Of a stretch of 64,000 nucleotides of DNA, positions 10,850 through 55,723 are shown one piece after another. The stretch lies in assembly GCA_008632985.1 (NCBI GenBank), contig QPGO01000315.1, positions 1 to 64,000 on the forward strand, written 5' to 3'. The translations under genes were made by a program, and so were the position numbers. How positions within the stretch are numbered: the stretch's first letter is position 1; each line of letters starts with the position of its first letter. Source of the stretch: Psammoneis japonica (Eukaryota). The notes under the pieces are model-generated. The model was not told the origin of the DNA. It ran no database searches and saw only the letters and a list, made by a program, of their open reading frames with translations.

Positions 10850-10941
10850 TTTCGCGTTTGCCGCGTGCGCAACTTTCCTCGCTCGAACTGGAACATCGAA
10901 CGTCAAACACAGTGAACAGTTCCAAGTTGCGCGACCCGAAA

Positions 10942-11907: not shown

Positions 11908-11928
11908 ACCCGAAAGACGGCAAAATGC

Positions 11929-13900: not shown

Positions 13901-13966
13901 TCGGAGAGACTGCAGCACAAGCTGCCGAATCGAAAAATTTGCGACATCACAAAATTTGCGACAAAT

Positions 13967-18750: not shown

Positions 18751-18825
18751 ACCAAAGGAGATGCAAGATGGTAATTATTAGCACAACAAACATGATGCGA
18801 AGTATTCTTCTCGATTTTCTGACAA

Positions 18826-20945: not shown

Positions 20946-21263
20946 TCAAGTCTTCAAGGTTCGCTTCTCCAATTCACCAGCATGTTCCTTTTTATACGCT
21001 TCCCACTTTTCCGTCGAATTGTGAATGGCCATGCAATCGTTAAACTTTTTGTGAACGGCACGGCATTTCCACACCACCAAGAGTCCGTTCTCTTGGGCGC
21101 ATTCGGCAAAGTCTTGAATCTCCTGCTTACAACTCTCCTTGGCCATGTCTTTGAATTCTTGACGCATTTGGTGCTCGGCAAAGTTGCGGAAGGACAATCG
21201 GCTCTCGCGCGACGCATCCTTTATGCGGGCTTTGCTTTCGGCGTCGATATTGTTGGATGACAT
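20946..21263 (-). CDS. Mitochondrial twin-CX9C COX assembly protein (CMC1-like)
   Basis: 105 aa ORF with CKQEIQDFAEC and CRAVHKKFNDC twin CX9C motifs and LLVVWKCR. Confidence 0.85.
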   Translation of the reverse strand: MSSNNIDAESKARIKDASRESRLSFRNFAEHQMRQEFKDMAKESCKQEIQDFAECAQENGLLVVWKCRAVHKKFNDCMAIHNSTEKWEAYKKEHAGELEKRTLKT

Positions 21264-21589
21264 GTTGTGTGCTCAGAGGCTCGAACTGAAAATAGCAAGG
21301 TTTGTTTCAACTTTTGAAAGAGAACGGTACGTCTTCAAAAGAAACCTCAACGGCTTGCTCTGTATCAGTGATGATGCGCAGAGAGCAACGACAACAGCGA
21401 GAAAAGGAAGAAAAGAGAAAAGAGAAACTGTGAGAGAAAAGTGAGAAACTGAATGAAAGATGAAAGGCGACGACCCAACTTTCTGGTAATACCGTACGTA
21501 TGGACGGACTCCAAGTACCGTAGTACGGCGTAACCGGATGCGCGAATGCATCGCGCGGTTCCATTTTGGCGCGAGCTTAGATCTTCGAT

Positions 21590-24500: not shown

Positions 24501-27400
24501 AAAAGCCAAGCAAAGAGCTTCAATCAGACCAACGCTCTCAAAGGTTTTGCGTGCAGAGTGACAAGAGTCACACACACCACATGAACATTTTTGAATTTGA
24601 CATGAGCTGCACCACCAACGCATGTGTGAACACAGATCAGCCCCTGTGCTGTGCACTTGTGGCGCATCTGATCAGCTCTTGCCAGAGTGTGCTGAGATGA
24701 TGACATCAGCCAAGTCACACATGCCCCATGCACAGTGCCCACATGCACACACACACCGCCTGTGCCCCCTTGTGCCCCAAGCTCAGCAATGTTGGTCAAG
24801 CTTTGAAAAAACTGACATGCCATCTCAACACAGTGGCCAACTTGGGAACAAATGCTCCCAATGGCTTTGGGGCCAGAAGACCCCAGGTGTCAGCAACACA
24901 GTGCAGCTGCACTGTGATGGAGCACAGGAGGAGCAGTTATCAGAGTGAGGTTTGGGTTGCTCTTTTGCAAATGAGGTTGATTGGATGGCAGCTTGGGCAG
25001 CAACAACAGCTGAACTTTTCTTGTTGTGATGGAGGTCCACATGAGCCCATCCAAGCATGACGCTTGACCCCAAGCTCACAACCTGCACAATGACTTGGGT
25101 TGTGAGACAGAGCTGGCACAGTCCTTTGACTGGAGAACAGTGCAGATGGTCTTTTGACAAAAAGGCTGGAAACCCAAAGTGCAGTCAAAGGAGTTGCAGT
25201 TGCTGATGCTCTGTCAGTTGAGTTGCAAAAGGTTTTGAAAAGATGGCAAGAGGTGCCTGGACAGTCTGTGTGTGAAGCATCAGCAAGCAAATCTGGTGGT
25301 GGGTCAAGAACACAGGGCTGTTGTGTGCACATGCTGTCAAGCACTCACATGGGAGAGCTCCAGCTTTGGTGAAAAAATCTGTGACTCTTGCAGCCACAAA
25401 CATTGAGGCACAGTCTGTTCCCTTTGTGCTCTCCTCTCTTCTCTCCCCATGCCTTCAAAAATCAATTTCAAGACAATGGGTCATCCTCTGTTTCAGTTTT
25501 CAGAAAGTGGGCATTCCATGGCCTGCTTCAAAAGTCTGAAATGTTCCCACATGTGTCTTGCACACCTCACCATCTCAAAGCTCCAGAGCACACAGCAAAA
25601 ACAGCACAGCAATGATGTTTCCTGCTTGCAGCTGAATTCATTGAAGGTCCACTTTTTTGTTAAAAAGCATTGCAGCACATGGTGGCTCTACAAAAATCAA
25701 ATTCAAGATCACAATTCATTGTCTGCTCCAATTTTCAGAAATTGTTCATTCCGCGGCCTGCTGCAGGAAGTCCAAAATGTCCCCACATGTGTCTCACACA
25801 ACACTTCACCACCTCAAAGCTCCAGATCACACAGCAAAAGCAGCGCAGCAAAGTTGAAAACAACAAAATGAAGTAGAAGGAGACTGCCAAGGCAGTTCAG
25901 ACATGAAAGATTGGAGCAGCAAGGTGGACAAAGTGTGTTCCCAAATTTGATTGAGAGAGTCATGAGATCCTTTAAAAAGAGATCAGCATGGAAAGGACTC
26001 TGGCTGCAAGTGAGAAAGTTGCTGACAAAATTGAGCAATGTCAGCAGATCAAGAGAGTGCTTGCTGACAGCAAAGAGTGCTGCAGAGGCATGTTTGAGTT
26101 GTGGTCAAAAGCAAAAGGCTCAAGCAGCTGCAAACTTGATGCCCACAAAAATGAGCAAAACAGCCAAGACCTTCTTGCTCAGTTGAGAAAAGATTTTTTT
26201 GTCATCAGCCAGAGCTGTGCTGCTTCTTGCAACTTTCAGCAATGGCAGAAGGGGCAAGTGGGAGACTTTCAATTGCATCACAAGAGAGGAGATAGGTGGT
26301 GCCAGGTGACAAGTTTGTGCCCTGAGGAAGTGGCTGGCCAACATGGATTGACCCCATCTCAAAAGAAAAGGTTTGGCACAGCCGCAGGAGCTGAGACAAT
26401 CTGTGGCTTTTTTGTTGCATTGTGTGCATCAGGCACAATCTGCTCTGCTTTCTTGAAGCCTTGCTCAGCCTCAAAGGAGTTGCAGAATGAGCAGAAACTG
26501 GCAGGTCAGGTTCAAGTGGGATCTTCGGCTGAGTCTTGGCACAGCATCACCAGCATCTGATGTGTGTGTGTGTTGGGCCAAGAAACTGAGCACATTGATC
26601 TCTCAAAGTTTTCAACTCAACCCAGTCAGTGGTGGTGCATGAGGTGCATGGCAAGTGTCTTGGGGTTTGTCTCTTCTGATTTCTTGACACTTTCACATTT
26701 TTGACTCATTGCCCTCCTCTCTGAGCAAGTCTCTTGCTGCCAACATCTGCAAGAAACCACAGAGCAGCAGCACTGTCATCCCCAGCCTTGATGCGTTCAG
26801 CACAGTCATCATCAAAAGGAAAGTTCTCATTTAAGATGACCCACAACAGCTCTCTTTGGACAAGGTGGAGTGGCGGGGCTTCACCCGGCAGGTGCGCCGG
26901 CTCTGTTTTCACGCGGGGGGGGGGGGGGGGTGCGACAATGCTCTGCTCCAAAATGAGGGATGTCTTGTGTGCATCAGGAATGTTTTGAGCCACATGGAGT
27001 CAGCCACAGTTCTCTCTCTGCAGGGGCACCACTCTTGTGGGGCAGTAGGTTTTTGTTCCCTGCCTGGAGAGTGCTTGCTCAGAAGTTTCACTGCTGGAAT
27101 TGGAGCCATGGATCCCGGACAGCGGGCAAAGTGGTGGCTGGCGCAATGGAGTGGCGTGCCCCCCGCCTGCGCACAGGTGACAGCTGCCCTGATTGGCAGC
27201 AAGCTTCTCTCATCGTCACTCAAAGATGGTGTGATGGTGTTAATGCAAGGTGTTGGACATTGTAGTCTACAAAATAGAAGACCTCGGGAGCCGTCTTTTG
27301 CCGTCGTCGTCGTCATCGAATTTCTCCGATGTGTGATGCATGGGTCGCGGAATTTCCCCCCAAACGCAACGGCAGGCAGACTTTGTTCCGCCGGGACAAA
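21590..27400. repeat. TpA/CpG-depleted relic domain 2 (degenerate gene-family and repeat remnants)
   Basis: Near absence of TA; degraded tandem duplications at ~22543-22860 and 25457-25850; remnants of a TM plus Ser/Pro-stalk protein (22400-23600, -) and an ankyrin-like GTPLH motif (~27150, -). Confidence 0.85.
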
Positions 27401-27710: not shown

Positions 27711-30448
27711 ATGTTTGGAATGCGCCCTAGTCAGTTGAGCCGGATTGTTCTGCATCAGCAAGGCGAGAACCCGTTGTTTTCATTCCGTAATAATAATGTG
27801 CGTTCCTGGAGGTCGTCGTCTTCATCCAGCCTTCATCCTTCTTGGAAGAGTCGTGTTGCAATGGTGGATGAAGCCCTGAATATGCTTAAGCGATTTGAGA
27901 CCCAGCCATCTGCACTAGCCGGAAGTGGCCATCAATGGATTGCAGACGAAGGAGCGACCAAATCAGTTGAGTGGAGAAGAACAAAGGAGGCAGTCTCATC
28001 GCTAGATGTGGGTATCAGGGAGAGCCCTTTGAATGAAGATTTTGGTGACTTGCTAGCGAAGGTTGTTGAACCAGCTGCTCGGCTTAGTACGGATGATACC
28101 GCACCGGGCTACATGGCTTATGTTCCGAGCGGTGGTCTCTTCCACTCTGCAGTTGCAGATTTTCTTGGAAGTGCCTTAAACAGGTACGTTACTATTCACG
28201 AGGCTGCTCCAGCCCTAGCTGCAATAGAAAACGAATGTATTGACTGGGCGTGTCGCGAGTTGGTTGGCTGGGACAACAGCAGCCAGTGCGGCGTCCAAAG
28301 TGGCGGAGTCCTGACATCAGGAGGATCTTTTGCCAATCTTGTTGCGATCCACGCGGCTCGGCAGTCCACCATTGATAGTGAGCAACTACCAAAAGCGACA
28401 CTCTATGTGTCTGAGCAAGCGCACTATTGCATCGAACAAGCTGGTCGCTTCATCGGACTTCAACCCAAGCATATCCGTAGGGTTCCCAGTAACGTGAAGA
28501 ACTTGAAGATGGACACTGACGCTCTTCGTCAAATTGTGGAACAAGACATTGCTGATGGGCTCATTCCAATTGCGATCTGCCCCACAGCTGGAACAACAAA
28601 CACTGGATCTTGTGACGACGTACAGGCATGTGCGAATATCTGTGCGGAGAATGGTGGAATCTGGTTACATGTTGACGCCGCCTACGGTGGTGCATTTAGT
28701 TTGACAAGCAAGGGACGCGAGACTGTTGGACCACTGAAGCTGGCTGATTCGGTAGGCTCTGAGTGCTACTATGCTACTTTTCCGCTGCCTACTTTAAATG
28801 TCATGCTGACTCTCCTTTTACGTTCTTGTACCGGCAGGTGGTTGTAGATCCTCACAAAGGACTCTTTATGCCATACGGTTTGGGAGCCCTGCTTCTTCGC
28901 AACGTGAACAAGCTTATGGGCGCGAACCACATGGATGGAGCATGTATGCAGCCTCGGCAGCTCGATACGACAAACACGGTCGCTGATATAATGAATCTTT
29001 CACCAGATTTGACTCGTGATTTTCGGGGATTGAGAATGTGGTTGCCCCTCAAGATGGTGGGTACTGCCACCTTTCGGAAAGAACTAGAAGAAAAGTTGGA
29101 GCTCACGACAAAGGCAACCCAAGCTATAGAGGAAAGCAATGTACCAGGATTGAGAGTAGTAGTGCAACCTGAGCTCAGCATCTTCACATTCAAGCTCGAT
29201 GCTCCAGAAGGAGTTGCGCTGTCTGGTGAAGAACTAGACAGGTTGAATATTGATTTCCTAGATGAAATCCACAAGAAGGCTAATGTTCTTCTTTCGCCCT
29301 TTCGGTCAATCACGGATACACCCGGCGAGTTCTGTATCCGCATGGCAATCCTTTCACATCGAACGGACCAGACAACGGTTGACACCGCAGTAGAAGATAT
29401 TATTGATGCTGCGAAGATTGTTCGGTCGCGCATGGCAACTGCTGCCCCGGATAAGTCCGTGAAGACTCTACCAGATCGCTCAAGTTCAATTAAGTCTGCT
29501 GCTAAAGACCCCGTGGCAGACTATCGAGAGCTCGCTGCACTTCTCATCTGGAATGATGTACTAGGATCAACCGACCAAGGTAGAAACTTCCGCATTCTTG
29601 ATGTATGTAGCGGCACAGGTCGCTGGATGCAGGCCTTCTCGGACATCGTCCTGAAGGAGCAACAATCGAATGCTTTTGCATATGAAATGGACTTTGTTGA
29701 TCTGTGCCAAGAATCTCTTGCTGTGTTGGATCAACGACGTACAAATCTTCTCGCCCGTCGTAAGATTGGTCCTGGTGAGATTCATTATGCCGATGCCTGT
29801 GATCTTCCGCCCGACCAGGTCAGTGCGTACGACCTTGTCACTAATATGCATGGGCTATATGGATTCACTGGCGTTGCAGCTAGCGACCACGACGATCGTC
29901 CTGGATCGAGCGTCCTTCAAACTGCTCTGAAGCGGATGATAAAGTCACTCAAACCTGAGGGTACTCTTGTGCTTGCGATTGCACACCGAGACTCGGAGGA
30001 GCAGCCGTCTTTCTACGACCGCATTGGACGAGAGCTTGCAGACATGGGTATCACGAACGAACCTTATATTTGTGCAGAAAATGTTATTGATGCATTTGTT
30101 TCACTTGGCATTGAGTGCAACATCAGCAAGTTGCCTGCCAGCCACAAACATCCCCATGATACGAACTGCTCATGCACTTTGCAGACCCTTGAGTATCGTG
30201 AAGACATCGCAGCAGTTGACAAGGAGGCTCTACACTGTTTTGTTTTAGAGGAATCTGGAGCAAACTCATTCCCTGCAACTTTCAATGCTGTTGATGGGTC
30301 AATTGGCGAGCACCAAGTTTCTAGCCACCTGCTCGACCTTGCCAAGAACGAGAATTATGACGAAGACACAGACAGCTACAGTTTCCAGCAGCGCATTGGA
30401 GTATTTGTGTTTCGCAACAGCGCTCACTCGACAGACATCATTCTCTGA
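27711..30448 (+). CDS. Group II PLP-dependent amino-acid decarboxylase fused to a class I SAM methyltransferase, 2 exons
   Basis: GVLTSGGSFAN, TAGTTNTGSCD, WLHVDAAYGG, VDPHKG (PLP lysine) after removing intron 28752-28837; C-terminal RILDVCSGTG, DFVD, YDLV motifs; uninterrupted frame. Confidence 0.88.
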
Positions 30449-30789: not shown

Positions 30790-32930
30790 TCTGTTGCGAC
30801 AGCGAATTCGAGATTGCAACAGCAGACAGCCAAAAACTTGATGCGTTGCAGGCGGTCCACATGAGGGTGTGATTCGAATGGACTCAGGTGTATGATGCAA
30901 CAACAGCAACAAAGGAGAGCAAGGTTCAGCCATGTGGGAGGTCGACGCATGGGTGCAAGACCAGCAAGAAGCAAACAGTCGTTATTTCCATCTCTTCCTT
31001 CATGAACAGTGGAGCATCTGGACTCCGCGGCAAGTGTTTGATGCTTGTTGCGTCAAGTGGCTTGCTGATGGCACATGTGAGTGGAGTGAACATGCAGATG
31101 AGCATGATGTCCAAAGTGCAAACTGCAGTCGTGCACACCCACAGGTGACTCTGTTGTTTCAGAACAAAAACAAGATGATTGCCTGCATTTTCTGCCATCT
31201 TGATCCGTTTCTTAAGCACTTTCAGAGCAGATGCCACAGCGGGGCTGCAGTGCAATTGGAAGACATGTCATGGGAACTTGGCTGTTGTTGCACGCAAATG
31301 AGCATGATCTGAAGAACCACAGTGGATTGTTGGGAGTCACCCATGGATGTCTTCTCCAAAAAGGCTCTTGGAGAGTCTGATTTTGCCCAGAAGTGACAAC
31401 TCAAAGAATTGCAAGAATCTTCAAATGGCAAGAAGAGAGCTTGCATAAATTCTTCTCCTCTTTGAGAAGAGCTTGTCAGACAAGTGCTCAAAGTGTGCCA
31501 CCAAAAGGGTCATGCAAAGCACTTGGAAGCCATTGAGACTTCATGGTTTGGTGCTCTCAACAAGATGGAGGTTGGCAAAGCAGCTGCTGCCACAACCAAG
31601 GAATGATTAAAAAACATCAAACTGCACCCTGTGTTTCTGAATGGACAGCTTGTGTTCATGGGCAATGTGCCAGTCATGGACATTTGGCACAGCAATGGTG
31701 AGAGGAGGATTTGGATGTGATGTTGACTGTGATGATGACCATTTGCATGACAGGGCAACAACTGTCTGCAAGAAATTTGGCAGAGGGCTGCTTTCACTGG
31801 TGTCTCATGAGGCCAACTTGCCTCAAGTTTTCTTGCTGGCTAACATCTCTGAAGTCCAGCAGGGCAGTGGCATCCTGGCATGCAATGCAAATGAGCCTGC
31901 TGAAAGTGAGCGCGCTGATCAGAGATCATGAGTTCAATTGCACTGGGCACAAGATGTGTTTGAGCACTGGTTTGTCATTTGGAGTGAATGAAAACAAGCC
32001 ATCACAAACAAATTGGATGAATGCTGGAGTCTTTCATTTTTTGCCTGAGCACCCTCAAGCCTGGCATTGTTGAGGAACTCAATGATGGCCAAGGATTGCA
32101 TGGTGTGAAGCTCCACATGTTGTGGAGCACCAAGCTGAGAAGACTCTGGAAGAGGTTGTGGAGCCAGCACCAGGCAAAGCTTCCAGTGATGCCAAGAGTG
32201 ACAGCAGTGGGTCTGGGCAACATGGCGACCCCCAAAGCCAGTGAGATTCACTGCAGTGGCAAGTTTGAGGTCAACAAGGTTTCTTTTGACTTGCTGGAGC
32301 ACTTGTGCTCTCTGCTGTGTGGGAGACAAGATTGCTGCAAAGCTGCACAGACTTGCAGACAAGCAAAATGAGAGTGACCATCATTGAATGGTGAAAAGCA
32401 GCATCTGGCTGCTCTGTTGAAGATGACATTTTGTGATGCATCATGTCGTCATCGAGAAAGAGACCCCCCAAGCAGATCTTGCCTTGGCTTGATCTTCATG
32501 CGGGGTGTGGGTTGCATGTTTGTGTTGAGTTTTTTTGTCATTCACAGACACCACAATCAAGGAAGAACCCCAAGTTGATTGCCTTGGCTTGATCCCCCCC
32601 ACTGGGTTTGGGTCACTTGCATTGTGCTGGTGCCTTCTTTGTGTTTTGTTCACAGGCACTGCCAGACCTCTGGGGCACACCACACAGTGTGTGGCTCCGA
32701 TGCTGCACAAACTTTTCACCCACAAGCACCTTGTTGCAATGAAGCAAGCCAAAAGCATGCAGCAGGCAAGAAGAAGGCTCCAAAGAAAGAGGAAGTTTGG
32801 AGTCCCAGAGCCCGCCAAGATTGTCCTGCAAAACTTCCCCTCAAGAATGCAGGCACTTGGTTTGGCACAAACCCGCTGACTGTGTCACACCACCCCGCGG
32901 TGGATGCATCTTCATTGTCTCCCTTCAACT
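30790..32930. repeat. TpA/CpG-depleted relic domain 3 (unidentified degenerate coding element)
   Basis: TA nearly absent, CA/TG excess; Cys/His-rich broken ORFs on + strand. Confidence 0.8.
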
Positions 32931-32980
32931 CTAGTTTAGCTGCCACTCTAGAGCCCCAGCTCGTAGAGCACAGCAGAGAC

Positions 32981-32984
<4 letters not shown>

Positions 32985-33034
<50 letters not shown>
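32985..33034. repeat. (AG)25 microsatellite
   Basis: Perfect AG dinucleotide run of 50 bp. Confidence 0.98.
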
Positions 33035-36999: not shown

Positions 37000-39272
37000 G
37001 TCAATGATGATTTCAGTTGAGTGATAGGAGAGTAGCAAGTTACTGCAGGGCCCTAGCTAGTCTACTAGATGGATTGAATGAGCTACGGTATCCCTGCCCG
37101 GCCCATGCATGCTGTGATGAGTGATGTGAGAGGTGAGAGAGTGTGAGTTCATTTTGGGTGGGAGCCTGACCGCTGATCGGTGATGTCGGCGTTATCCTGA
37201 TAATTTTGAACACACTCTTGCATGTGCCGGCACGCAATGAACGACTTTCCGCCCCAGCGACGACGAAGTCAACTTCTTCATGGGGTGCTGTGACAAGCAG
37301 TCAGACAGAGGTGGGTGTTCGAGCTGTGAAGAGCAGCCCCGTCTTCAACAAGAAAACTCAAGAGCATCCGCCTGTGTGTCATCCGTTTTCCCGCCAACTG
37401 TGATCAAAGGACCGCCGCAGCAGCCAGAGCACATGCCAGAGGAGCTCTGCTGCACGGAAATTTCTGCGCACAGTCATGGTGAACAGCACCCCCCCCAAAG
37501 CACTCAATTTGATGACAACAAAGTCCACAATCTTGGGCATTTGGGCCCCACCCTCACTCACAGAGATGCCCGCACTTGCCTGAATGACTTGTGCTCAGAT
37601 GGGCAACAGACACCAGCACGAAGATGAGAGAAAACTTGAGCTTCATTGGCTGCATGAACCCAGTTATTCAGTTTTGTGTGGGGGAAGTCTTGACATGTTT
37701 TTGTGAGTTGTGTGAGAGAGAAAAAAGCCTGAAGCAAGCCTGGCTGCAGCAGATGGAGTCAGAGCCCACCTGCTTTTGCCTGCGACGCCAATGAGGCCAC
37801 CTCACACAAGGGCAAAAGTCTTGCAAGCCATTGCCGCTCTCTTGTTTGTGTTCCAACAAGGAGAGCCCCAGCCACCATGTGGTGCAAAAATGCAAGAACC
37901 CCACTCAACAATGTGCTCTTCCCTTGTTTGATGAAGCACCGTGTGAGAATTTTCAAGTGGTTGTGCAGAAGGGTGCTGCCAGCAAGCGCACGAAACATCC
38001 TCCTTTTTCTGCCCAAATCTAAATGACGAGTGTGGCTGGCTTGTGTGCAGAGCAGTGGGTGGGCATTTTGGGCCAAATGTGTGCCAAAATCTGGTGTGCA
38101 AAATGGTCCATTGGACTGGCAGGTCAAACAAAAAAGCCAACGACAGAAGTGTGCACACTCCCGTCAAGCCACCAGAGGACTCAACAGGCCCTGCTGCCTC
38201 AACCAGCCCCACTTGCTGGCTGAAAGACACTTACAGAGGTCATGCACAAACACACACGTGCGTGACTGCTGCACACAACAGCAGAAACACAACGTCAAAT
38301 GGCCAGAAATCCAAGCTGGAGTGGTGCTGTGCAGACCAGTTGACAGAGGTGCTTGCAATGCTGTGTGTCTTTTTCATTGGCTCCAGCACATTTGAGCTGT
38401 CCACCATTTTCCTGCACTTGGCTGTGCAGCTCCAACTGAAAATTCCATTTTTTGAAAAACAAGTGATGGCTTGTTTGCAGTTTGGAAATTTCATGCAACT
38501 GTCTTGATGCAAAAAGTGGCCAACACCAAAGTGGAGCTCCCATCTTCATCAGCATTTCCGTCATGCCATCTGACTCCACTGTTGCCAAACACATGAAACA
38601 CTTTGTTTTTCACTCTCTTCCCGCACTTCTTCATGCAAAATCAAGCACAACAAATGCCACCACCTTTTTCATGGTGAAGCCAAGGTTGCACTGTCAAGTG
38701 TTCCGGTCAATCACACATTTTGCATCCTTGCAACTGTCTGCACTGTGTTTGGAGTTCTTCACCACCCACTGAGAAATGTTCCAATTGTTTGTCCAGTTTG
38801 TCATTGTCAAGCCCAAACTCTGCACAACTCTTGCTGGCATCCTCCCCATTGTGCTTTCTCTGCTTTTCATGAAGACATGCATTGGTGGCTGTGCGTGCAC
38901 ATCAAATGAAGTCAGGAGTTTGTCGCAGATCTCAATCTTCTCTTCATGCAGCCCAACCCCCCCCCCATTTCTCTCTTCAAAGTTCACAGTTGTTTTAACC
39001 CCCCCCCCCAGAAATTTGAGCACCAGATCAACAGAGACAAGAAGACAGCAGAGCAATGAGCTGAGACCAGAGCAAGTGTGGACATTCAAGCAAACTCCTG
39101 AGCTCTTTCCGAGTGCCCCCCCCCCCAGCCAAGTGCCAAGACACAAGGGCCAACAAGCGCCCATGTTGGCACACATGTCAACAACACAGCAAGAAAAAAA
39201 GGTGGCTTGTGAGCATGTGAGTTTTGCACTGCAACAAACAAAGAACTCCACCAACTGCGGTGTGCTTGCTGT

Positions 39273-39704
39273 TGCAGCATGCCTCGCTGCTGGACAACAC
39301 GGCGAGACCGTGCACAAGCCTCTTGTGCATGGCAACGCAGTGTTGTTAACACGCACCTGGGAAGCACGACCACAGGAGGGCGTGGCTCTGGGTCTCAGGC
39401 AATTCCAGAAGGATGCTAAGAGAGCGTCCGTGTGAAGCACACTGGCCCGTCATCTGGCCCACGATGGCAGCGTGATTCCACACTGTGACATCACTCGTGC
39501 ATGGCGCGTGATGGCTTGATTCGCACGATCCACAATGCGAACGCACGATCGATTTAATGCGATCCAAATGCGAACGAATGGGGATTTGGCAAGATTCCCT
39601 GTTCGCACGATCCCATTTTCTCTACTCTAAACTAGCTCACAATTTTCACAACGACAAAGTCGTAACACATCTTCTTTTTCAGCGCCTGGCACATGCATGG
39701 GGCA
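39273..39704 (+). repeat. 5' LTR
   Basis: 11 mismatches to the 3' LTR over 432 bp by manual alignment. Confidence 0.95.
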
Positions 39705-39798
39705 CAGCAACATTGCTCCCGCATGTTGTGCGAGGTGACGAAATCTACAGAAACGAAACTACGAAATGTTGGCAGGACCGACAAATCTTAAAACAACC

Positions 39799-42700
39799 AT
39801 GAAGAAGCGGATCAAGCCGCTGATTCCGTTCGCACGGCCGGAGAAGAAAGAGCTGCAGCAGGGCGAGTGCCAGACGTTCAAGCTGCGTAACAACCCCACT
39901 GATCCGGACAGTCCAATGCACGAGATGGGCATTCCGCACCTTTCTGCGGCTACATGCGAGACACTCCTGATCTTTCTGCGCAACGTGGATCGCGTGCACG
40001 AAGGACAAAACATCACGACCGGGCCAGCAAAATTTGCCCTTGTGCATGACCCACTGCAGGGCGATGCTCTGACGTCATTTGACAATGCCGCTGACAAGCA
40101 GGCATCCCAAACCAACGCTGCGTGCGCAGCATGCGTCGCGAAGCTAAAGGAAAGTGTCTTCCCACATGGGGCGGCACTGTTGCAGAAGCGTCATCTGCGG
40201 CGCTTCATGCGCAAGCCCGCAGAGGTTTCTGCTCGTGACTGTGTCACGAGGGCTGTTGAAATTAACGGCTGTGTCTCTCAGTTTCCACCCATGACGGAGG
40301 ATGGAAAAACACCGGCACCATTGCCTGATGATGAACTGTGCGATGTGTTCGAGTGCGGTGTGCCGAGTGCATGGCAGAAGTTCATGACGCTACAGAATTT
40401 TGACCCGTTGGCGCATGCTGTCGCCGAATTTGTGCAGTTCTGCGAGCGCACCGAGCAGGTCGAGCTTGCCGAAGGTAACCGCGACCAACACACTGGGGTC
40501 TCACGTAAGCGGGGACGTAGAACGGACAGTTCTGAGTCGTTGATCACGACCCAACCGAACACCCACGTGAAACGTGTCAAGACTGGACATTCCAGTGACG
40601 GAGGCAGCAAGCCTGACACAAAACCTCGGAATGAGGAAGATGTCAACACTCTCATCGGATCAAAGGTCGAGGAGTGCTTTGCCAACGCTCAGAAAAAGTG
40701 CAAGGCCCGCGAGGAGGAGCTTGATCACTTCCGCGACCTCAACTCAAGTGATTCCGAAGACTCGGACACTTGCCGACACGATGCAGGTAATTTTAATGCA
40801 TTGGATGAATGTGCAAATGAACAACTGAATTGCCATCGTACACGTGTTGCAGGCCAATCCCGCAAACAAGTTAAAAAGACTCATCTTGCTCCAATCTTGT
40901 TCACAGCCATGAATGCTGAACATGGCAAGGGCAAGACTCAAACCATCAAGGCACCACCAGACAGTGGCGCCAGCAGCACTCTGCTTGACAGTTGACACTG
41001 CAAACGTCTGCGAAGCCATTCAACGGCTGAGACAAACTGGGCTGCGGCAGCAGGCTCGTTTGGTGCATCTGACGACTGCACCGTTAAATTTCGGTCACCA
41101 GAATTGTCCAAAACTGCAGAACTTGAGCATGCCGTCCACGCACACAACGGAAAGTTGGGCAAGTGCGACATGATTGTTGGACGTGACATTCTGGAGACAC
41201 AAGGCATTGACGTTGTCTTCTCCAAACAGATGGTGGAGTGGCCATCAGTCAATGGAGAGGTGCCAATGAGGCACGCAAATGCTGCGGTGGAAACCTCCTT
41301 CTATCTTCAAGATCCAGAAGCCTTGTCTTCGGAAACCGACCGGATTTCGCATGTTTTAGACGCCAAGCACGCGCCGGCCTGCCTCGAGGACATGGCGCGA
41401 GGGGCAATGGGACTTTCTGTGGTTCAACAAAACGACCTTTTGGCACTGTTGAAACGCCATGAGTCCTCATTTGATGGGACATTGGGAGAATGGAAGGGAG
41501 AACCCTGCCACATCCAACTCAAGGAGGGTGTGGAACCACACCACGCTCATCCGTGTGAAGTGCCTCGTGCGTGCGAAGCTGTGCCACGCAAAGAAGTAGA
41601 ACGCCTGGCACGCATCGGTGTTCTCAAACGCGTCAACCGATCCCAATGGGCAGCTCCATCATTTGTCACACCGAAGAAAGATTTAACGGTGCGCTTTGTT
41701 GATGATTTCAGAGAGCTGAACAAACGGATCAAGCGATTGCCTCATCCGATTCCTCACATCCAAGATGTGCCACTTGAGCTCGAAGGCTTTGTGTGGGCTA
41801 CATCGCTGGATTTAAACATGGGCTGTCATCACATCCAATTGGACACTGATGGCAAGAAGCTCTGCACGCTCATCTTCCCGTGGGGCAAGTGTGAGATGCA
41901 GGCATTGCCCATGGGATCATGCAATTCGCCAGACATTTTCCAAGAACGCATGTCAGGCTCATTTGAAGATCTGTCGTTCGTTCGAACGTACTTGGATGAC
42001 CTTCTCGTTGTGACGAAAGGCACCTGTGAAGATCACCTCAACAAACTTGAAGAAGTTTTGTTGAGGGTCCAGAAAGCAGGACTAAAAGTTAACGCAACTA
42101 AATCTCATTTCTGTCAAACCCAATTAGAACACTTGGGTTGTCTGGTCAACAGAGATGGAGTGCGACCAACACCCAATGAAGTTGACGCCATTGAGCGAAT
42201 CGCGACCCCAACCAACAAACGCGACCTGCGTTCATTCATTGGCATGGTGAACTGCTGCCGTGACACGTGGATCAGACATTCTGAAGTCTTGGCTCCACTG
42301 ACACGACTCGCAAGCGAGACTGTCAAGTGGAAGTGGACGTCCGTTGAAGACGAGGCGTTCGAAACCGTTAAACGGGTGATGTCCGATGATGTTTTGTCAT
42401 CACATCCTGATTTTAACAAACCCTTTGAGATGCACACCGATGCCTCTAAACATCAATTGGGAGCAGTCATGTCCCAAGATGACAAACCCATCGCCTTTTA
42501 CAGCAGAAAGCTTGACAGTGCGCAATTAAATTGTGCAACAACGGAGAGAGAATTGCTCGCCATTGTGGAGACGTTGAAAGAATTTCGAACGATTCTCCTT
42601 GGTCATCGTGTGATCATGCACACTGATCATAAAAATCTCACGTGCAAAGCACTCAACACCGAGCGCGTCATGCGCTGGCGGTCAATGTGCGAAGAATGCG

Positions 42701-44030
42701 GTCCCGAATTACGCTGTGTTGAGGGTGCCCATGACCCAGTCGCTGACGCTCTTAGTCGCCGTCGACTGGCACCCAGCTTGCCTTCCGAGGCCAATCCGGA
42801 TGTAAAAGACACTCCATCGAGTCGTCCTTTGCATGAAGCCTTTAATGCAGACGCTCAAGATGAGCCATCTCTGCCCATTGGCTTCAAGCGCATTCAAAAA
42901 GCACAACAAAAGGACAAGCACCTGCTCTCAAGAGCTGAGGACTCGCCCGACTGCTCCATTCGCGCGCATCATGGGGGAGGGTCATCACGACAGTTAATCT
43001 GTCATAAGGACAAAATCGCAGCACCACAGTCATTGCAGGTTCCGCCAACTGAATGGTGCCACGAGACACTGTGTCATCCAGGTGAGACACGCACGGAAAC
43101 ATCTGTTGCCCAGCACTTCTGTTGGCCTGGTGTGAGGTCTACGGTGCATTCTACGTGTGTCAAGTGCGATCGATGCCAGAAGACAAAACGCTGAACGCAG
43201 CATTGTGGGAAGCCACCAGAAAAGGTCGCAGAGATAATTCCATGGGAGACTCTGTGCGTGGACATGACAGGGCCACATAAAATTCAAAGACGCGGAAAGG
43301 ACACTTTGCAATTGTGGGCAGTCACAATGATTGACCCAGCAACCGGGTGGTTCGAGATTGAAGAAGTGTCTGCGAAACGCGCAGACGTCGCAGCAAACGT
43401 CGTGGAACAAACGTGGCTGTGCAGATGTCCGTGGCCAACCCAGGTAGTTTATGACCGTGGGACAGAATTTGTGGCAGAATTTAGCCAGATGATTAAAAAT
43501 GACTGTGGGATTTTGAAGAAACCCACAAGCAAACGGAATCCACAGGCGAGTGCCACAGTGGAACGTGCACACCAGACACTTGGCAACATGGTGCGTTCCT
43601 TTTCAGTGCAGGATGTGGAACTGGACGAAGATGACCCATGGAGTGGCATCCTCTCCGCAGTGGCCTTCGCTGTCAGAGCTGCGGTGCACACGACCACGCG
43701 TGCAAGTCCCGTGCAATTGGTCTTCGGACGCGATGCGGTTTTGTCCATTGCCCATCATGCCAAGTGGAAGTGCATAGAAACCAGAAAGCAGAAGCTTGTC
43801 CACTTAAACAACAAGCGTGAAAATCAGAAATGCAAGGAGTGTCAATGTGCCGCAGGGCAATTGGCACTTGTCAAACAGGAACAATCCTCTAAATGCGGTT
43901 CTGACAGCTGTGCAGGACCCGCCAGAGTTGTCCGTGCACATGACAACGGCACGTTGCGCATCCAGAACGGAGCGCTGACAGATGCGCATAATCTACGGCA
44001 GATTGCACCCTGTCACCAGCAAGACATTCT
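39799..44030 (+). pseudogene. gag-pol polyprotein of the Gypsy element, two in-frame TGA stops and pervasive Tyr->Cys/His
   Basis: Protease DSGAS, RT DFRELNK / LPMG / YLDD, RNase H TDAS and ERELLAIV, integrase H-H-CxxC, CVDMTGP, YDRG, VERAH; TGA at 40993 and 43192. Confidence 0.93.
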
Positions 44031-44061
44031 GTCACTTGACGGCCCTGATCATGGGGGAGTG

Positions 44062-44493
44062 TGCAGCATGCCTCGCTGCTGGACAACACGGCGAGACCGT
44101 GCACAAGCCTCTTGTGCGTGGCAACGCAGTGTTGTTAACACGCACCTGGGAAGCACGACCACAGGAGGGCGTGGCTCTGGGTCTCAGGCAATTCCAGAAG
44201 GATGCTAAGAGAGCGTCCGTGTGAAGCACACTAGCCCGTCGTCTGGCCCACGATGGTAGCGTGATTCCACACGATGACATCACTCGTGCATGGCGCGTGA
44301 TGGCTTGATTCGCACGATCCACAATGCGAACGCACGATCGATTTGATGCGATCCAAATGCGAACGAACAGGGATTTGGCAAGATTCCCTGTTCGCACGAT
44401 CCCATTTTCTCTACTCTAAACTAGCTCATAATTTTCACAACGACAAAGTCGCAACACATCTTCTTTTTCAGCGCCTGGCACATGCATGGGGCA
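44062..44493 (+). repeat. 3' LTR
   Basis: Direct repeat of 39273-39704, offset 4789. Confidence 0.95.
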
Positions 44494-46299
44494 CTGTGTC
44501 ACCTTCCAGGTGCGGCATTGAGTTTCTCTGACAATTGCCAAGGCCACAAGCTTTCCCAAGGTTGCGTCACATCACTTCATTGAAAATGCATGCACTCTTC
44601 AATTGCAATGGCCAAAAAACAACGTGCCATGACTGCAAGCTGACCAAGACCCCAAGAAGCCAATGAAGAGTGTTGCAAGTTCATCGGCATTGCACAATGA
44701 AGGTTTCTGCCAAAGCTTGCCAAGTGGGAGCAAATGAAAGGCTGTCCATGATGAAAGCACTGCAGCAGTGCAAACACCTTGAAAAAGGCTTGAATGAGCT
44801 GCCTCTGGGATGCTCCCACAAGGAGAAAATGACAAGCTCTTCTCCAGCCCAAAACTTTTCATTTGTGGGTGTTCGCACGCTGGGGGAGTTCATCCCTGCA
44901 TTTGTCTTGACTGAAGTCACCATGGCATTTGAACAACTGCACTTGCAAGTGTTTGTTTTGAGCACAACAATTGCTCTTGTTGTTTGCACCTGATTGTGAG
45001 ATTGAGCCATGACAATGACTGCAGTCACCGACCTTTCTCAAAAATGCAGCTTGCCGTCCATGCAAACTTTCATGTGTGGCAGAGCTTTGGTGCGCGAGGA
45101 TCATGAAACAAGTGAGAGAGTTGGCAGATGGACCACCTCTGTCACAGACTTGTGGATTGCTGTTTTTACAATGGCGAAGCATGGTGAAATCGAGGGAAAA
45201 TCATGCAAATCACAAGCCACTCAGCCAAATTTGAGCCAAAAAAGCAGCACGCAGCAGCACCCTCAAGTGGGGTCATCCTCGCGTTTGTCCCAAAATTGCC
45301 ACAATGTTGAGTGAGGCTTTTTGTGGCATTTGTTCATGCACACAAAAGCCACTCTTGTTGTTGTCCATGTGCCTGCTCACCGATCATGCACAAAAACAAC
45401 AAGAGCGTGAGACACCACAGTTGATGATGGCCGAAAACAGCCTTTGTGACATTTCTCAACAATGCGGCTTGCTTTTTCAAGCACACAAGAGCTTTGGTGC
45501 ACAAGAAACACAAAACAATTGAGATTTGATAGATGGACAACCTCTGTCACAGACTTGTGGCTTGCTGCTCACCATGGCGAGGCACAGCGAAGCTCAGAAA
45601 CAACAAAAAAAATTCAGCGCAGATCGGGGGGAGAGGCCAGCAGGAGACACAGTGGTTTGCACCCCCCCCCCCCCCGTGCAAGCAGGCTGCAAGCACCTTC
45701 TCAAGCTGGAGCAACCTCAATCTTTTTTCCTTGGTGAGTCAAGAGCAGCCCACACGCCCACCCTTTGGGGCTCTGCTCTGGCCAGAGCTCCAGCTGCTGC
45801 CTGCATGTTTCCCGACGACTTGCGAGCTCTGGCTTGACTGAGCTCTGCTCCTCATGGCTTGCACCACAATCAACCAGAGTGCTCAGCCAGGAGCATCAGC
45901 AACTAGAGGAGAGAAGAGTCAGAGAGTGACAGAGGGCAATGGTCTTGCGATTGCACGAGCTGCTCAGCCGAACTCGAGCTAGTCTAACAAAGGTGGCGTT
46001 GAGAACAAAAAAGACATTCGTCGCGGCCGTTGACATTCTTGTTAACGCGCGCGGGACGAGCTCGAATTTTTCGTTCAACGGAAATCAAGCAACAGAAACC
46101 TCTCAATCTCCTCAAATCATTCGCTTGAAGTGAAAACCTAAAAGTTGTTGAAAGTTGAAAGATAACTTGAGTGTTGGTATTGTTACTTTTAGCACTGGCT
46201 TTTGCTTTTTGGGCAGAAGGTAATTTTACTTACTGCTCTGACAGATAGGTCGCCCTAAACCGGGAATCGTTCGACGACAGATAAAAAGGGAATGCAGCG

Positions 46300-47742: not shown

Positions 47743-48149
47743 TAGTTCGTTTATTGTGCTGAGGCTTGCACTTTCGCTGCAGTGTTACAATTAGGTAGAT
47801 CTATCGAGAGAGCTCTATCGGCGACATGGCGAATCCACGCTAAATCTTAACATTAATTAAACCCATCTTTGTTCGAGGTTGATCTGCGATCGTTTCTTTG
47901 CATCCATGACGAAAGGATCAATCAAAATGCTGCGCCAGGACTCGATTCTAGTTACAGCAAGGAATTGGACAATGCTCCAGATGCAGAGCGACTTGCGAAT
48001 GTCCGATTTGCTCGAACTGTTGATCACTCGCGTAATTTGATGAGAGGTGAATGCAAACGTCCAACTTCTGAATAACACTGTCTTCAGAATCTGGCAGTTC
48101 TCCTTCATAACTGATCAAACCTTCTCCCTCAATTCGCAGGACAGATGTT

Positions 48150-49800
48150 GTTGAACTGTTCCAACATCAAAACTTCAATAAAACCCTCGAAAAATCAATG
48201 GCATCACCCACCACGAGATGTTCTCTGCCTTTGACATCAAGGCTAAAGAACGAGACGTGTCTCCTTGGAAGCATGCCCAGCATTAGACTTGCGCAGGGCA
48301 CCTGGGGGGCCTGGTGGCTCCCCCACTTCAAAGTTGTTGGTGCAAGCTGTAGCAAGCTGGCTGGTTCCACTGAACTGGTGGACAATGCCAAGGAACTGGT
48401 GCTGATGACTGCAGATGGCTTTCCTTCACTGTGGGGAACACAACAGACACAGCAGAATTGACATTCAAGGAACCAGTGCATTCGCAGGATCCAACTGAGG
48501 ATGGACATCAAATGCATCTTCAACTTGAGATGCAACACACAGTGGCATTGCAGTTGCTGAGACGCGGGAGCCGGGTCCAATTTGGACTCTGCAAACCCCA
48601 CCGGAACTTAAAAGAGACATCACAAATGCAGCAGAAAGCATGGGAGCTGTCTCACATCCTGCATGGTCACTGGAGCATGGAGCACCCTGATCTCATGATG
48701 TTGATTCTTCACCTGAGAGAGGTCAACCAGGCCCTTCTGGCAATGCACATGAGGTTGGCAATCTTGACAGGGGAGCTGGGGAGATTGTAAGATCATGCCA
48801 AAGGATGTTTGTCTTGGTGGTGCCAGATGAACAAGTCAGAAATGCGACCCTTGGATTGGTCTTGAGTGGCAGCAACAGTGGCACTCTGAGTGTTGGCATC
48901 TGCATCTCCCTCTGGAGCCAAAAATGATTGGCGGTTTTTCATCCAACACCCACAATGACCACACCAAGGAAGAATGCTTGGTTGCACCATTGGTGATTCA
49001 AGCATGAGATTCTCCATGTCTTGGAGGAATCTTGCAAGGATCCCTTTGAGTGCAAGCAGTCTGGTGTTGCAGGTGATTGCAACAATCGCCTCGGCCACCC
49101 GGGCCTCGTCCGCCTTGGTCTCCACATCCGCCGCATCCACCACCACCTTGGTCTTCCTTGAGAGGCCAAGAAGCACCCTTGGGATCATCTGACACATCAT
49201 CCCCGAGTGGATTGGGGGCTGCATCTCTGATCGGGACATCTCCTTGTGATGCTGAACGAACACTCATTTCGCAAAATCAAAGGTTTCGCTTCATGCCAAC
49301 TCAACAGACTCAACTCAAAGCAATGACAAGACACTTGGGCTCACAACCGCAGAAAGGAGCTGGATGACAGCACAAGCTGGGGTGACAATGATTGTCTAAA
49401 TGGCACAAATGCCTCGACAGCGTGCGGAGCTGTTGAAGTGATTCTGGTCCCCGAAAACGCACAAATCCTCAAGAAGTGAGAGAAGGAGAGAAGAGGGGCC
49501 CCAAAGGCCTCAAGAGCAAAAGTGTGGACCAAAAGACATGCCACTGGCATGTGTCCATGAGAAAACCGTAGAATGGATGTGACCAAATGAAAAGCCAGTC
49601 ATCCGAAAAACCACAACAAACCCAACAATGGCAGCAATCTCCAAAGAGAGTGAACCAAGAAAAGACACGCCACTGGCACATGTCCACGAGAAAACCGCAG
49701 AATGGATGTGACCAAATGAAAAGCCAGTCATCCGAAAAACCACAGCAAACCCAATGGCAGCAATCTCCAAAGAGCAAACCATGTGCTGTGCTGCACTCCC
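48150..49800. repeat. TpA-depleted domain 5; possible retroelement gag remnant on minus strand
   Basis: TA scarce; Gly/Arg-rich stretch followed by WCGHCGCW knuckle-like motif (48940-49150, -). Confidence 0.65.
49532..49774. repeat. Two-copy tandem duplication, period 129 bp
   Basis: AAAGACAYGCCACTGGCA...GCAGCAATCTCCAAAGAG at 49532-49647 and 49661-49774. Confidence 0.9.
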
Positions 49801-52725: not shown

Positions 52726-53985
52726 TCATTGAAAGTAGCATTCTTCAGTGTCTTCTACATGCCAGATGCATCCAAAGGGTTGACCTGTTAGTTCGTCTTC
52801 GATCGTCTCTGTTGACACTTCAAGGATATGCGTAGCGTAGTCTTTTAGAGTTGAAACGTCGTCCTCCAACGACGGTGGTTCGTCCCACGTCTTTTTCTTC
52901 AGTGTAGAAACACCTCCGTCCTTCAACATTTTGAGAGCTAGTTCAGGTGAAGGTCTTCCAAAGAAAATCTGATGTTCAATGGGAACCCAGGCAAAGCTGA
53001 AATACTCCTCGCTGATGACAATGAGCTGGCCGTCAAGCCATTGGTGATTGACGAAACCATCCTCAGCCACCTGACCATACCCACGAATTCGCTGTAATTG
53101 CTTTGTCCCCCATTTTTTGGCAGCCTTTTCTGTTAGTTGAATAGGTTGCAAATCTGGCTTTTCTTCGCCGCCAACTCTGCGCTTCTTGAGAGGACTCAGA
53201 TCTGCCTGAAAGGTCAGCTCACCTCGTGGTACGTTGTTGTCTCCCGTAGTCTTTTCAGCTACCAGTACGTCGCCAACATATGTCACATTAATCATTTCAT
53301 AGCCATGCTTTCCATACCTAATAAAAAACAAGAAGTATTGATTGGTAAGAACAAAACATAGAGGATGCGAACAATTCGACGATCGAATGTGGAACACTCA
53401 CTTTCCGACCCACAACCCTTCCAAGTTGAATTGGGGCAAACAACTTCGTGCCGCTCGAGCATTAGCCTTGTGTTCTGCCGCATCGTCGTAGCGATGTTCA
53501 GACTTCGCCTTTTCAAGTGCTTCTAATTCTAGCTTGTATACAAGCTCAGGGTCTTGCTTCTCCAATTCGTGAAGACGTTTCCGGATTTTGTTCTCACGTT
53601 TGCTAAGGCCGGCGTTGATAGCATCGACCAACTCAACGCTCAAGTCTTCAATCTTGGTCCGAAGGTCCCATAACTCATTCCCATACTCTATAAACTGCGC
53701 TCGAGCCTTCGAGTCGAGCTCTTTCCGTTGCCGACGCATATCGCTTTCGAGCACCGGCTCCAGATCTTCAAATTCGGACAATCGACGGTTGCTTTCACCA
53801 TCCGTGGAGGTCTCTTTGGAAGAGTACAGCTGAAATCTTCGAGAGAGGCGCGATTGTGGTACGACACCGAATGACAAAACTCCACCCACCGACAAAAGAA
53901 CAAAAAGCACAAAAGTGAACGATCTGTTCTTTTCTCGACCAAACTTGACAGCGAACATTGTTATCGCAACAAAATTAAAATGCAA
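52726..53985 (-). CDS. Plastid-targeted DUF3506 / EXECUTER-like protein, paralogue A, 2 exons
   Basis: Hydrophobic signal ending VLS-F; coiled coil with RYDDAA; LEGLWVGK|YGKHGYEMINV, KTTGDNNVPRGELTF; intron 53401-53318. Confidence 0.78.
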
Positions 53986-54572: not shown

Positions 54573-55723
54573 ATGTTTTCTCGAATTTTAATTGCCACTG
54601 CCGTATTGGTAGCTCTTATCGATACGGCAGCTTTTGTCAGCCAGCCAGCATTTACATCATCATCGCGAGTGCGAAACACTGCCCGTTTCATGCATTCGGA
54701 TGCCGCAGAAGAATGGGAGATGTCAGAAGAGCGCCAAACAGGATTTTCTGACTCACGTCGTGAGCGTTTGCAGCTCGAAGCAAGCGCCAAGTCTAGATTT
54801 GTGTCTGGTGATAACCTTCATTTGTTACGAAAAGAAGTGTTGAAATTGCGTGATGAACTCGCTAAAGCAAGAAGAAACGATTCTTCCTTGCGTGTCAAAG
54901 AATTAGAACGTGCCATCCTAAAGGCGCAACAAGTCGATGCAGAGTTTGTTTATGCTGTCGCACAAGAACGAATGGATGAAGCAGAAGAGATGGGAGATTA
55001 CGAGGCTTTGGAGAAATTTCGTGCTGAAGCAATGGAGGCGCGTTCTTGTCTTCCTCAGTTCAACCTTGAAGGGCTTTGGGTTGGAAAGTAAGTATTGTTT
55101 TGGCGCGACCAGGAAACGTTGTCGATTTGACTGTTTTGAGCACGAGACTTATTCGTTTTCCGATCTTCAATTCCAGATACGGCGAACATGGTTACGAAAT
55201 GATCAATGTCACCTATGTTGGCGACACTTTAATTGCTCGTAAGGTTACCGGCGCAAAGAATCAAAATGTTCCCAAGGGACAAGTGACGTTCCAAGTTGAT
55301 CTGAGCCCAAATCCAATTTCATCTGATAACATGCTTCAACCAATTGAATTGACGGATGATGCGACCAAACAATGGGGAACAAAACACCTCTCTCGCTTTG
55401 TCGGAGTTGGGCAGGTTTCTGGGCAAGGTTTCTCCAATAGCCAATGGTTGGAGGGACAACTCATCTTGGTCGGGGACTACTTTAGCTTTGCATGGGTCCC
55501 ACTAGGGCACCAGGTATTCTTTGGACGCCCAAGCCCAGAACTTATTCTTAAAATGGTCAAGTCAGAAAATACCGCTCCCTCGAGTCAAGACCAAATGCGA
55601 GACTACCTGGAACGATGCATGGACGAAACTAACCAACAGGAAGAAGAATCAAAGCACTGTGAAAAGTTGTCATTTACAAGAGACGATCCCAGTTACTTTG
55701 GCCAAGCGGGATGCTTCGAATAA
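54573..55723 (+). CDS. Plastid-targeted DUF3506 / EXECUTER-like protein, paralogue B, 2 exons
   Basis: MFSRILIATAVLVALIDTAA-FVSQP bipartite presequence; CLPQFNLEGLWVGK|YGEHGYEMINVTYVGD; intron 55088-55176 at the same codon position as in paralogue A. Confidence 0.8.

Follow-up and report, generated by a model that had tools for sequence, protein, structure and literature searches.

Loss of TpA and CpG in a repeated Ty3/gypsy retrotransposon and in the DNA around it in Psammoneis japonica

Results

Anatomy of the element

We analysed a 64,000-nt stretch of the Psammoneis japonica genome (assembly GCA_008632985.1, contig QPGO01000315.1, positions 1 to 64,000 of the forward strand), hereafter called the window. 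At 39273-44493 it carries a 5,221-bp Ty3/gypsy long terminal repeat (LTR) retrotransposon, a member of a highly repeated family, in which the dinucleotide TA has clearly been converted to TG or CA over the long term. Repeat search and MAFFT alignment showed that 39273-39704 and 44062-44493 are direct repeats of each other, 432 nt apiece. Both LTRs run from TGCAGC to GGGGCA and they are identical at 421 of 432 nt (97.5%). The 4-bp target-site duplication CTGT and the TG..CA termini indicate a true insertion. The features of the element are the following:

39269-39272, + strand: 5' target-site duplication CTGT, the same 4 bases as after the 3' LTR
39273-39704, + strand: 5' LTR, 432 nt, TG..CA termini, with 7 TA, 30 CG, 36 TG and 47 CA
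39329-39663, + strand: span of the nine sites that differ between the LTRs, in 5' LTR coordinates (adding 4789 gives the 3' LTR position)
39739-40995, + strand: gag-like frame that extends as far as the protease motif DSGAS and ends at an in-frame TGA (40993-40995), with 1 Tyr in 418 amino acids
40996-44058, + strand: pol frame, interrupted by one in-frame TGA (43192-43194) and coding for reverse transcriptase, RNase H and integrase
44053-44059, + strand: purine run GGGGGAG, a possible polypurine tract judged from its position, 2 bases before the 3' LTR
44062-44493, + strand: 3' LTR, 432 nt, with 8 TA and 33 CG
44494-44497, + strand: 3' target-site duplication CTGT, matching 39269-39272

Pfam recognises RVT_1, RT_RNaseH, Integrase_H2C2 and rve, in this order and all after DSGAS; the gag-like frame at 39739-40995 has no Pfam match. 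By tblastn, homologues align in a single piece from 40792 to 44019, and no second gypsy pol relic was found in the window. No tRNA-complementary stretch that could serve as primer binding site was recognised by eye 3' of the 5' LTR, and no Rfam family matched anywhere in the window. The element is non-autonomous: it has two in-frame TGA codons (40993 and 43192), 2 of 23 conserved Tyr survive and 80 of 463 conserved residues are changed. The TGA at 40993-40995 lies directly after the protease motif, where the best homologue has Ser.

Direction of change in the pol protein

Out of the 120 listed homologues, 39 (49-57% identity) were aligned to the pol frame, whose stop at 43192 was read as X. 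Residues shared by at least 80% of the homologues were taken as conserved. Two of the 23 conserved Tyr are kept, and the 21 changed ones have become Cys (16) or His (5); all six conserved Cys and all eleven conserved His are retained. A single TA>TG or TA>CA change accounts exactly for 49 of the 80 replaced conserved residues and may account for two more, while four correspond to CpG decay and none to a change of TG or CA into TA. Tyr content is 0.2-0.4% in the element versus 2.9-4.5% in all 120 listed homologues. As a control, the host CysRS was compared with the solved chain 9yru_A: Tyr is kept at 8 shared positions, with two Tyr-to-His and no Tyr-to-Cys replacements. The polarity from TA to TG or CA, which had been supposed in the initial annotation, is therefore borne out for the long term by the protein comparison, as well as by a less-converted family contig and by two relics elsewhere, both described below.

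The Tyr of the reverse transcriptase motif YLDD (41989-41991) is one of just two conserved Tyr that are kept, despite a context, GTAC, of the most vulnerable kind. The chance of this is 2 in 23, which is not significant.

A mosaic of converted blocks and spared genes

Over the whole window the observed/expected ratio (o/e) is 0.34 for TA, 0.69 for CG, 1.46 for TG and 1.43 for CA. A 1-kb map resolves these averages into a mosaic, in which stretches of host genes (TA o/e 0.45-0.85, CG 0.8-1.3) alternate sharply with converted blocks making up about 45% of the 64-kb window. In these blocks TA o/e is mostly 0.1 or less (edges to about 0.2), CG o/e is mostly 0.2 or less (some edge kilobases are higher) and TG and CA reach 1.5-2.0. 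They consist of complex, apparently unique sequence and are not simple repeats. The six blocks are:

1-9000: converted block
22000-27000: converted block
31000-33000: converted block
37500-39272: upstream flank of the element, non-genic, TA o/e 0.04-0.2, CG o/e 0.2-0.45
44494-46000: downstream flank of the element, TA o/e 0.08-0.13, CG o/e 0.4-0.6
48000-49500: converted block

The flank at 38900-39213 is single copy, since it is covered by one contig of ordinary depth (54). The element is intermediate on the same map (TA o/e 0.14-0.25, CG 0.8-0.97, TG and CA 1.4-1.6). With its CG still at this level and TA already low, CpG loss lagged behind that of TA.

By Pfam, the host open reading frames (ORFs) encode PLP decarboxylase, MutL, GST, TTL, SNF2, CysRS, TYW1 and other proteins. 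Tyr makes up 0.6-5.3% of residues in 13 of 14 of them; the fourteenth, a DUF5898 frame in a converted block, has none. TA o/e by codon phase is 0.44/0.61/0.59 in host ORFs versus 0.06/0.23/0.36 in the element. Moreover, an 86-nt GT-AG intron of the PLP-decarboxylase gene (28752-28837, with a CTGAC branch-like site) keeps many TA though it is non-coding. From the codon phases and this intron it follows that gene bodies are spared as regions, and not only through selection on their proteins. The claim that the process acted on chromosomal DNA agrees with these data: by the mosaic map, the codon phases, the intron and the sequence context given below, it looks chromosomal, strand-symmetric and gene-sparing.

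We considered whether the composition could be a sequencing or base-calling artefact at modified bases. This was rejected, because accurate-read contigs (31-mer depth about 54, up to 315 kb long) show the same flank free of TA and CG. Such a contig differs from the flank by 3 letters and 1 gap in 314 nt, and agrees with the converted state of the element, although the accurate-read run may be the source of the assembly itself, which makes this support not fully independent.

Several further observations concern the converted DNA. The ORF at 8405-9250 (- strand), which matches DUF5898 (E 1.5e-8), has no Tyr and only 2 TA in 846 nt, and is probably a converted gene or a mobile-element relic. The segment 9001-14000 is in an intermediate state like that of the element (TA 0.05-0.3, CG 0.5-1.0); its sole recognisable domain is a weak DnaJ match at 11890-12342, and it holds a two-copy 119-nt direct repeat with a spacing of 124 nt at 13307-13549. 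Among 42 long frames from converted blocks, Pfam gave just DUF5898 and weak matches to DnaJ, DUF3915 and PSS below the curated cut-offs. In the single-copy flank, a contig of run X1 (see below) and the window differ at 39130 (C/T, CA versus TA) and at 39159 (G/A, CG versus CA), again at these dinucleotides.

Context of the surviving TA

The flanking bases of the surviving TA (Y, pyrimidine; R, purine) were counted in the element, the converted blocks and the genes:

YTAR (TTAA, CTAA/TTAG, CTAG): 34 of 67 in the element, 44 of 74 in converted blocks, 103 of 671 in genes
RTAY (ATAT, ATAC/GTAT, GTAC): 2 of 67 in the element, 1 of 74 in converted blocks, 228 of 671 in genes

Taken together, the element and the converted blocks keep RTAY at 3 of 141 surviving TA, and all four of their deviations from the 25% expectation, for YTAR and for RTAY, have P < 1e-5. 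CTAG, TTAG and TTAA survive best. Of the conserved Tyr codons that changed, those after a pyrimidine gave 11 Cys and 1 His, and those after a purine 5 Cys and 4 His. A>G at 5'-TAY-3' on either strand fits this context and thereby points to a double-stranded DNA substrate. A preference for TAY, or RTAY, may exist; we treat it as a lead and not as a rule.

The two LTRs compared

MAFFT alignment and direct comparison reproduced the nine differing sites (11 nt in 432) that had been reported for the LTR pair, at the same positions and in the same classes: five TA versus TG or CA, two CA versus CG, and one each of TG versus CA and TG versus GA. With the 5' LTR given first, they are:

39329: A/G, CA versus CG
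39444 (44233 in the 3' LTR): G/A, TG versus TA
39452: A/G, CA versus CG
39468 (44257 in the 3' LTR): C/T, CA versus TA
39484-5: TG versus GA
39556: A/G, TA versus TG
39579-80: TG versus CA
39640 (44429 in the 3' LTR): C/T, CA versus TA
39663: T/C, TA versus CA

The carrier of TA alternates as described earlier, being the 5' LTR at two sites (39556 and 39663) and the 3' LTR at three (44233, 44257 and 44429). In the chance model, 22.5% of all single transitions that the LTR sequence permits interconvert TA and TG or CA. Against it, such changes are in excess among the single transitions (5 of 7, binomial P = 0.008) and among all sites (5 of 9, P = 0.03). Eight of the nine differences lie on TA- or CpG-type dinucleotides, in keeping with the warning that LTR dating with a neutral rate would mislead. 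A low TA content (o/e 0.30-0.35) is common to both LTRs.

Adjacent double changes occur at 39484-5 (GA>TG), at 39579-80 (TG versus CA) and, in the interior, at 41234-5 (CA>TG). The swaps between TG and CA at 39579-80 and 41234-5 need two steps, through TA or CG. Two short contigs of run X2 carry TG at 39579-80, as the 5' LTR does.

Family copies and recent changes

Contigs of three runs (X1-X3) were compared with the window over 38900-44061 at 80% likeness, run X1 giving 5,869 pieces. Summed word depth, which is not a copy number, is 54-74 in the flank, 54,000-70,000 in the LTR and 9,300-22,500 in the interior. Transitions account for 482 of 494 variant places in run X1. Polarity was read at the 40 of 496 variant places that were listed, three of the nine LTR sites among them, and what follows on family majorities refers to these places. 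At 39452 the family reads give G as ancestral, which makes the 5' LTR change CG>CA. At 39484-5 they give GA as ancestral, with the 5' LTR derived. At 39556, the sole TA/TG site of the LTRs polarised in this way, TG has 93% of the family depth and A 7%.

Places where more than 80% of the family depth differs from the window were taken as near-private changes of this copy. There are 30 such positions, representing 28 events:

CpG to TpG or CpA: 11 events, including CGA>TGA at 43192
TA to CA or TG: 3 events (40647, 40723, 42451)
TG to TA: 1 event (39556, in the 5' LTR)
CA to CG: 1 event
Other transitions: 9 events
Double changes: 2 events (39484-5, 41234-5)
Transversion: 1 event

CpG decay of this copy is therefore plain. 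The in-frame TGA at 43192-43194, for example, has C (CGA) in 99% of the family depth. Per target in the interior, 3 of about 55 TA and 10 of about 272 CpG were lost, and there were 0 gains of TA on 803 TG and CA. None of the 49 inferred conversion sites of pol, nor of the two possible ones, is among the listed near-private differences. This and the low TA common to both LTRs support the earlier proposal that the progenitor was already mutated, and most TA loss is older than the insertion at 39273-44493.

Between the window and a contig of run X3 there are 14 differences: at nine the contig has TA where the window has TG or CA, at three it has CG where the window has CA or TG, two are of other kinds and none is in reverse (12:0). 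The contig is a deletion derivative, in which 737 nt of internal sequence are replaced by 29 other letters (39765-40503), and is less converted than the window copy. Family copies are also polymorphic for TA versus TG or CA at 40597-40647, in run X1 as well. Less-converted copies therefore exist, and conversion still segregates in the family.

Relics in metagenome contigs and remaining features

A protein-pattern scan of public metagenome contigs gave two gypsy pol relics, L001 (4-1047) and L002 (290-1504), with 49-53% identity. Their TA o/e is 0.01 and 0.10 and their CG o/e 0.15 and 0.23, respectively. Conserved Tyr is kept at 0 of 10 positions in L001 and 2 of 11 in L002, and conserved Arg at 2 of 10 and 4 of 11, the others being replaced by Cys, Trp, His or Gln. 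Polarised by protein comparison, both the TA and the CpG decays appear here at a later stage than in the element. A 24-nt exact word of the LTR was absent from the metagenome contigs searched.

Elsewhere in the window, an assembly gap of 519 N lies at 323-841, and a Cyclin_D1_bind domain occurs in two ORFs on opposite strands, 52726-53397 (- strand) and 55070-55723 (+ strand), 1.7 kb apart.

Discussion

We think it likely that the lineage of this retrotransposon was hit by a regional A:T to G:C hypermutation at TpA, together with CpG decay, mostly before the insertion, and that both went on afterwards. The hypermutation would be strand-symmetric, regionally targeted and confined to TpA, which it would turn into TpG or CpA, while CpG would decay to TpG or CpA alongside. 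The bulk of the TpA loss would have taken place in the source lineage, so that it is common to both LTRs and to most family copies. This copy would then have been inserted into non-genic DNA nearly stripped of TpA and CpG. As the same two processes would still act on chromosomal DNA after insertion, the LTR differences would gather on TA- and CpG-type dinucleotides. Since TpA loss removes TAA and TAG stops and creates none, the gag-pol frame would stay nearly open despite its ruined protein. As regards the chemistry, our best guess, which we hold with some reserve, is that adenine in DNA may be deaminated by an ADAT2/TadA-like deaminase preferring 5'-TAY-3'.

Several points weigh against this reading. 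The largest near-private class is CpG decay (11 of 28 events) and not TA loss (3 events). The excess of TA differences is real but modest with the LTR pair alone, and as such weak evidence. Going by the family majority, TA was gained at 39556 and not retained, but the majority for TG could also come from parallel TA loss in other copies. Hundreds of copies share the conversions, and thus the ruined element would have had to keep transposing, presumably in trans. With respect to context, the split of Tyr outcomes between pyrimidine and purine neighbours is not significant (Fisher P = 0.12), and T>C at YTA underlies eight or nine changes of Leu to Ser or Pro, contrary to a strict TAY rule. The patterns that found L001 and L002 were taken from the converted query, which biases the search towards converted sequences.

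The initial annotation had read the LTR pair as a record of TA loss in each LTR after insertion. The chromosomal process from TA to TG or CA that it invoked is supported; the five LTR differences themselves may be, but need not be, losses of TA and fresh events of that process. Likewise, the TA class that it saw in the mutation spectrum is present, but ordinary CpG decay had been given too little weight. The five differences could instead be mostly gains of TA, back-mutations or chance, amid transition noise and CpG decay, the loss of TpA having finished before insertion. The family majority at 39556, by which the TA of the 5' LTR looks derived, speaks for this, as do the targets, TG and CA (83 per LTR) being about tenfold more numerous than TA (7-8). 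At compositional equilibrium the flux would be equal both ways; moreover, surviving TA sit in the resistant YTAR context, and two of the five TA alleles of the LTRs are YTAR. We nevertheless consider it unlikely, as the interior shows losses of TA and no gains on its 803 TG and CA, and TA loss still segregates among family copies. In addition, each of the three RTAR sites has CA as its other allele, as T>C at RTA predicts, a weak indication at n=3. Import of the differences by ectopic gene conversion from polymorphic family copies seems less probable still. In its favour, summed word depth in the LTR is about 1000 times that of the flank (not a copy number), with 5,869 contig pieces, and alleles such as those of 39556 are already present in the family. 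However, the TG at 39484-5 is nearly unique to the 5' LTR (<1% of depth), so that this one, at least, arose in situ, and the scatter of the differences over 335 nt with alternating TA carrier would need several short tracts.

Conversion could also have struck before integration, on retroelement RNA or cDNA in each replication cycle, by an ADAR- or ADAT-type enzyme, with the LTR differences of other origin. This would account for conversions identical in both LTRs and common to most of the family, and for the excess of Tyr-to-Cys, which is A>G on the sense strand, over Tyr-to-His (16 to 5). We find it very unlikely, since neither strand is favoured where the context leaves both open (Tyr codons after a purine gave 5 Cys and 4 His) and the single-copy non-genic DNA beside the element is even more fully converted. 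ADAR acts on RNA and prefers a 3' G, yet TAG contexts are among the best survivors. In addition, the corresponding mutations of the alga Bigelowiella natans hit single-copy DNA of the chromosomes while the lines grow clonally, according to the main text of a preprint (bioRxiv 10.64898/2026.01.13.699255). The mutated base might otherwise be thymine, modified at TpA and mispairing with G. A TET/JBP-type hydroxylase would act at TpA in silenced DNA, where it would make 5-hydroxymethyluracil (5hmU) or more oxidised products and so cause T>C on either strand. We rank this second among the chemistries and regard it as doubtful. T>C at RTA leaves the same signature as A>G at TAY, and 5hmU is reported to replace T preferentially in TA and TC in Crypthecodinium cohnii and to have its loci mostly in repeats in Amphidinium carterae (PMC11572971). 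However, the window shows no shortage of TC (o/e 1.08), and a base-resolution map of Breviolum minutum is reported to give no motif (PMC11071213). The gene layout of the window also argues against it, with genes on both strands and few introns, which does not look dinoflagellate-like. The mutagenicity of 5hmU:A is low, a further point against. Finally, selection could have removed TA, against UpA in RNA or against TATA or stop signals. TA is indeed mildly under-represented in most genomes, including the host genes here (o/e about 0.6). We hold this to be hardly credible and reject it: the loss destroys most conserved Tyr of the element's own enzymes, unique DNA that looks untranscribed falls to TA o/e 0.0-0.1, and synonymous sites and the intron of host genes are spared, so that Tyr loss, codon phases, block map and intron all contradict it.

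The closest known system is that of B. natans. In mutation-accumulation lines of this alga, 231 of 302 nuclear mutations fell in two integrated viral regions, 230 of these 231 being A>G or T>C and all at TpA according to the authors, at about 1000-fold the background rate and in some lines only (bioRxiv 10.64898/2026.01.13.699255). TpA-poor predicted coding sequences were enriched for reverse transcriptase and DDE domains, and an ADAT2-like DNA adenine deaminase was proposed (bioRxiv 10.64898/2026.01.13.699255). As far as the preprint's main text goes, the likeness is close: there as here, A:T>G:C at TpA gives TpG or CpA according to the strand, and the long-term trace is depletion of TpA with enrichment of CpA and TpG. 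The B. natans process strikes foreign or silent regions, one of them single-copy; here too the change is found at TpA on either strand, in particular regions, with genes spared. There are also differences. The direction of change was watched in lines of B. natans, whereas here it comes from proteins and family copies. Two viral inserts are the target there; here it is an LTR retrotransposon of high copy number together with nearly half of the 64-kb window. CpG is lost here from the same blocks, and the surviving TA follow a flanking-base rule. The nuclear genes of B. natans are intron-rich; the host ORFs here are long and uninterrupted. The words CpG, trinucleotide, LTR, retrotransposon, flanking and tyrosine do not occur in the main text of the preprint (bioRxiv 10.64898/2026.01.13.699255). 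Natural A:T>G:C mutation of DNA at a defined dinucleotide is thus already known, first reported in that 2026 preprint for one alga; a full-text literature search found no other relevant report. New here are an LTR family as target, the concomitant CpG decay and a possible flanking-base (RTAY) preference.

Other systems share part of this picture. Repeat-induced point mutation (RIP) of fungi likewise leaves defence-like transitions at one dinucleotide, ruined transposon genes and a dinucleotide trace. However, RIP changes C to T at CpA and so produces TpA, whereas here TpA is destroyed, CpA and TpG are created and single-copy DNA is also converted. We rejected RIP, as the repeat has no TpA excess from C>T at CpA: TA o/e in the element is 0.14-0.25 and that of TG and CA 1.4-1.6. 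Decay of methylated CpG by deamination resembles the change of CG to TG or CA in 11 of 28 near-private events, the Arg losses of L001 and L002 and the block CG o/e of mostly 0.2 or less, but alone it covers just the CpG half, and in the element TA loss runs ahead. With APOBEC3 and ADAR editing in animals our case shares a deaminase-type hypermutation recorded in integrated LTR elements, as described in a report on such editing (PMC4866542), and edits common to both LTRs when made before integration. In contrast, APOBEC causes G>A on one strand, and here A:T>G:C falls on both and includes unique chromosomal DNA. ADAR-type hyperediting of RNA was rejected too: both Cys and His outcomes are seen where context allows, and CTAG, TTAG and TTAA are the best survivors.

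It is tempting, though doubtful, to propose that a single chromatin-targeted editing system would erase the two self-complementary pyrimidine-purine dinucleotides outside genes, TpA by TadA/ADAT-like adenine deamination at 5'-TAY-3' and CpG by cytosine deamination. It would leave kilobases of single-copy complex DNA without TA or CG, and LTR elements would amplify protein-dead, in a RIP-like defence of opposite chemistry acting genome-wide. If true, the extent of such editing would greatly exceed that of the two viral inserts in B. natans.

A natural DNA adenine deaminase, if this is the enzyme, would be of interest for base editing, and the flanking-base preference (RTAY lost, YTAR kept), if real, constrains the candidates. 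In genomes of this kind long ORFs are no evidence of function, since TAA and TAG are erased, and dating by LTR divergence is unreliable, while the signature of Tyr changed to Cys or His can mark transposon proteins. In summary, the window suggests a TpA process capable of reshaping a large part of a genome, which acts on retrotransposons and outruns CpG decay in the same DNA.

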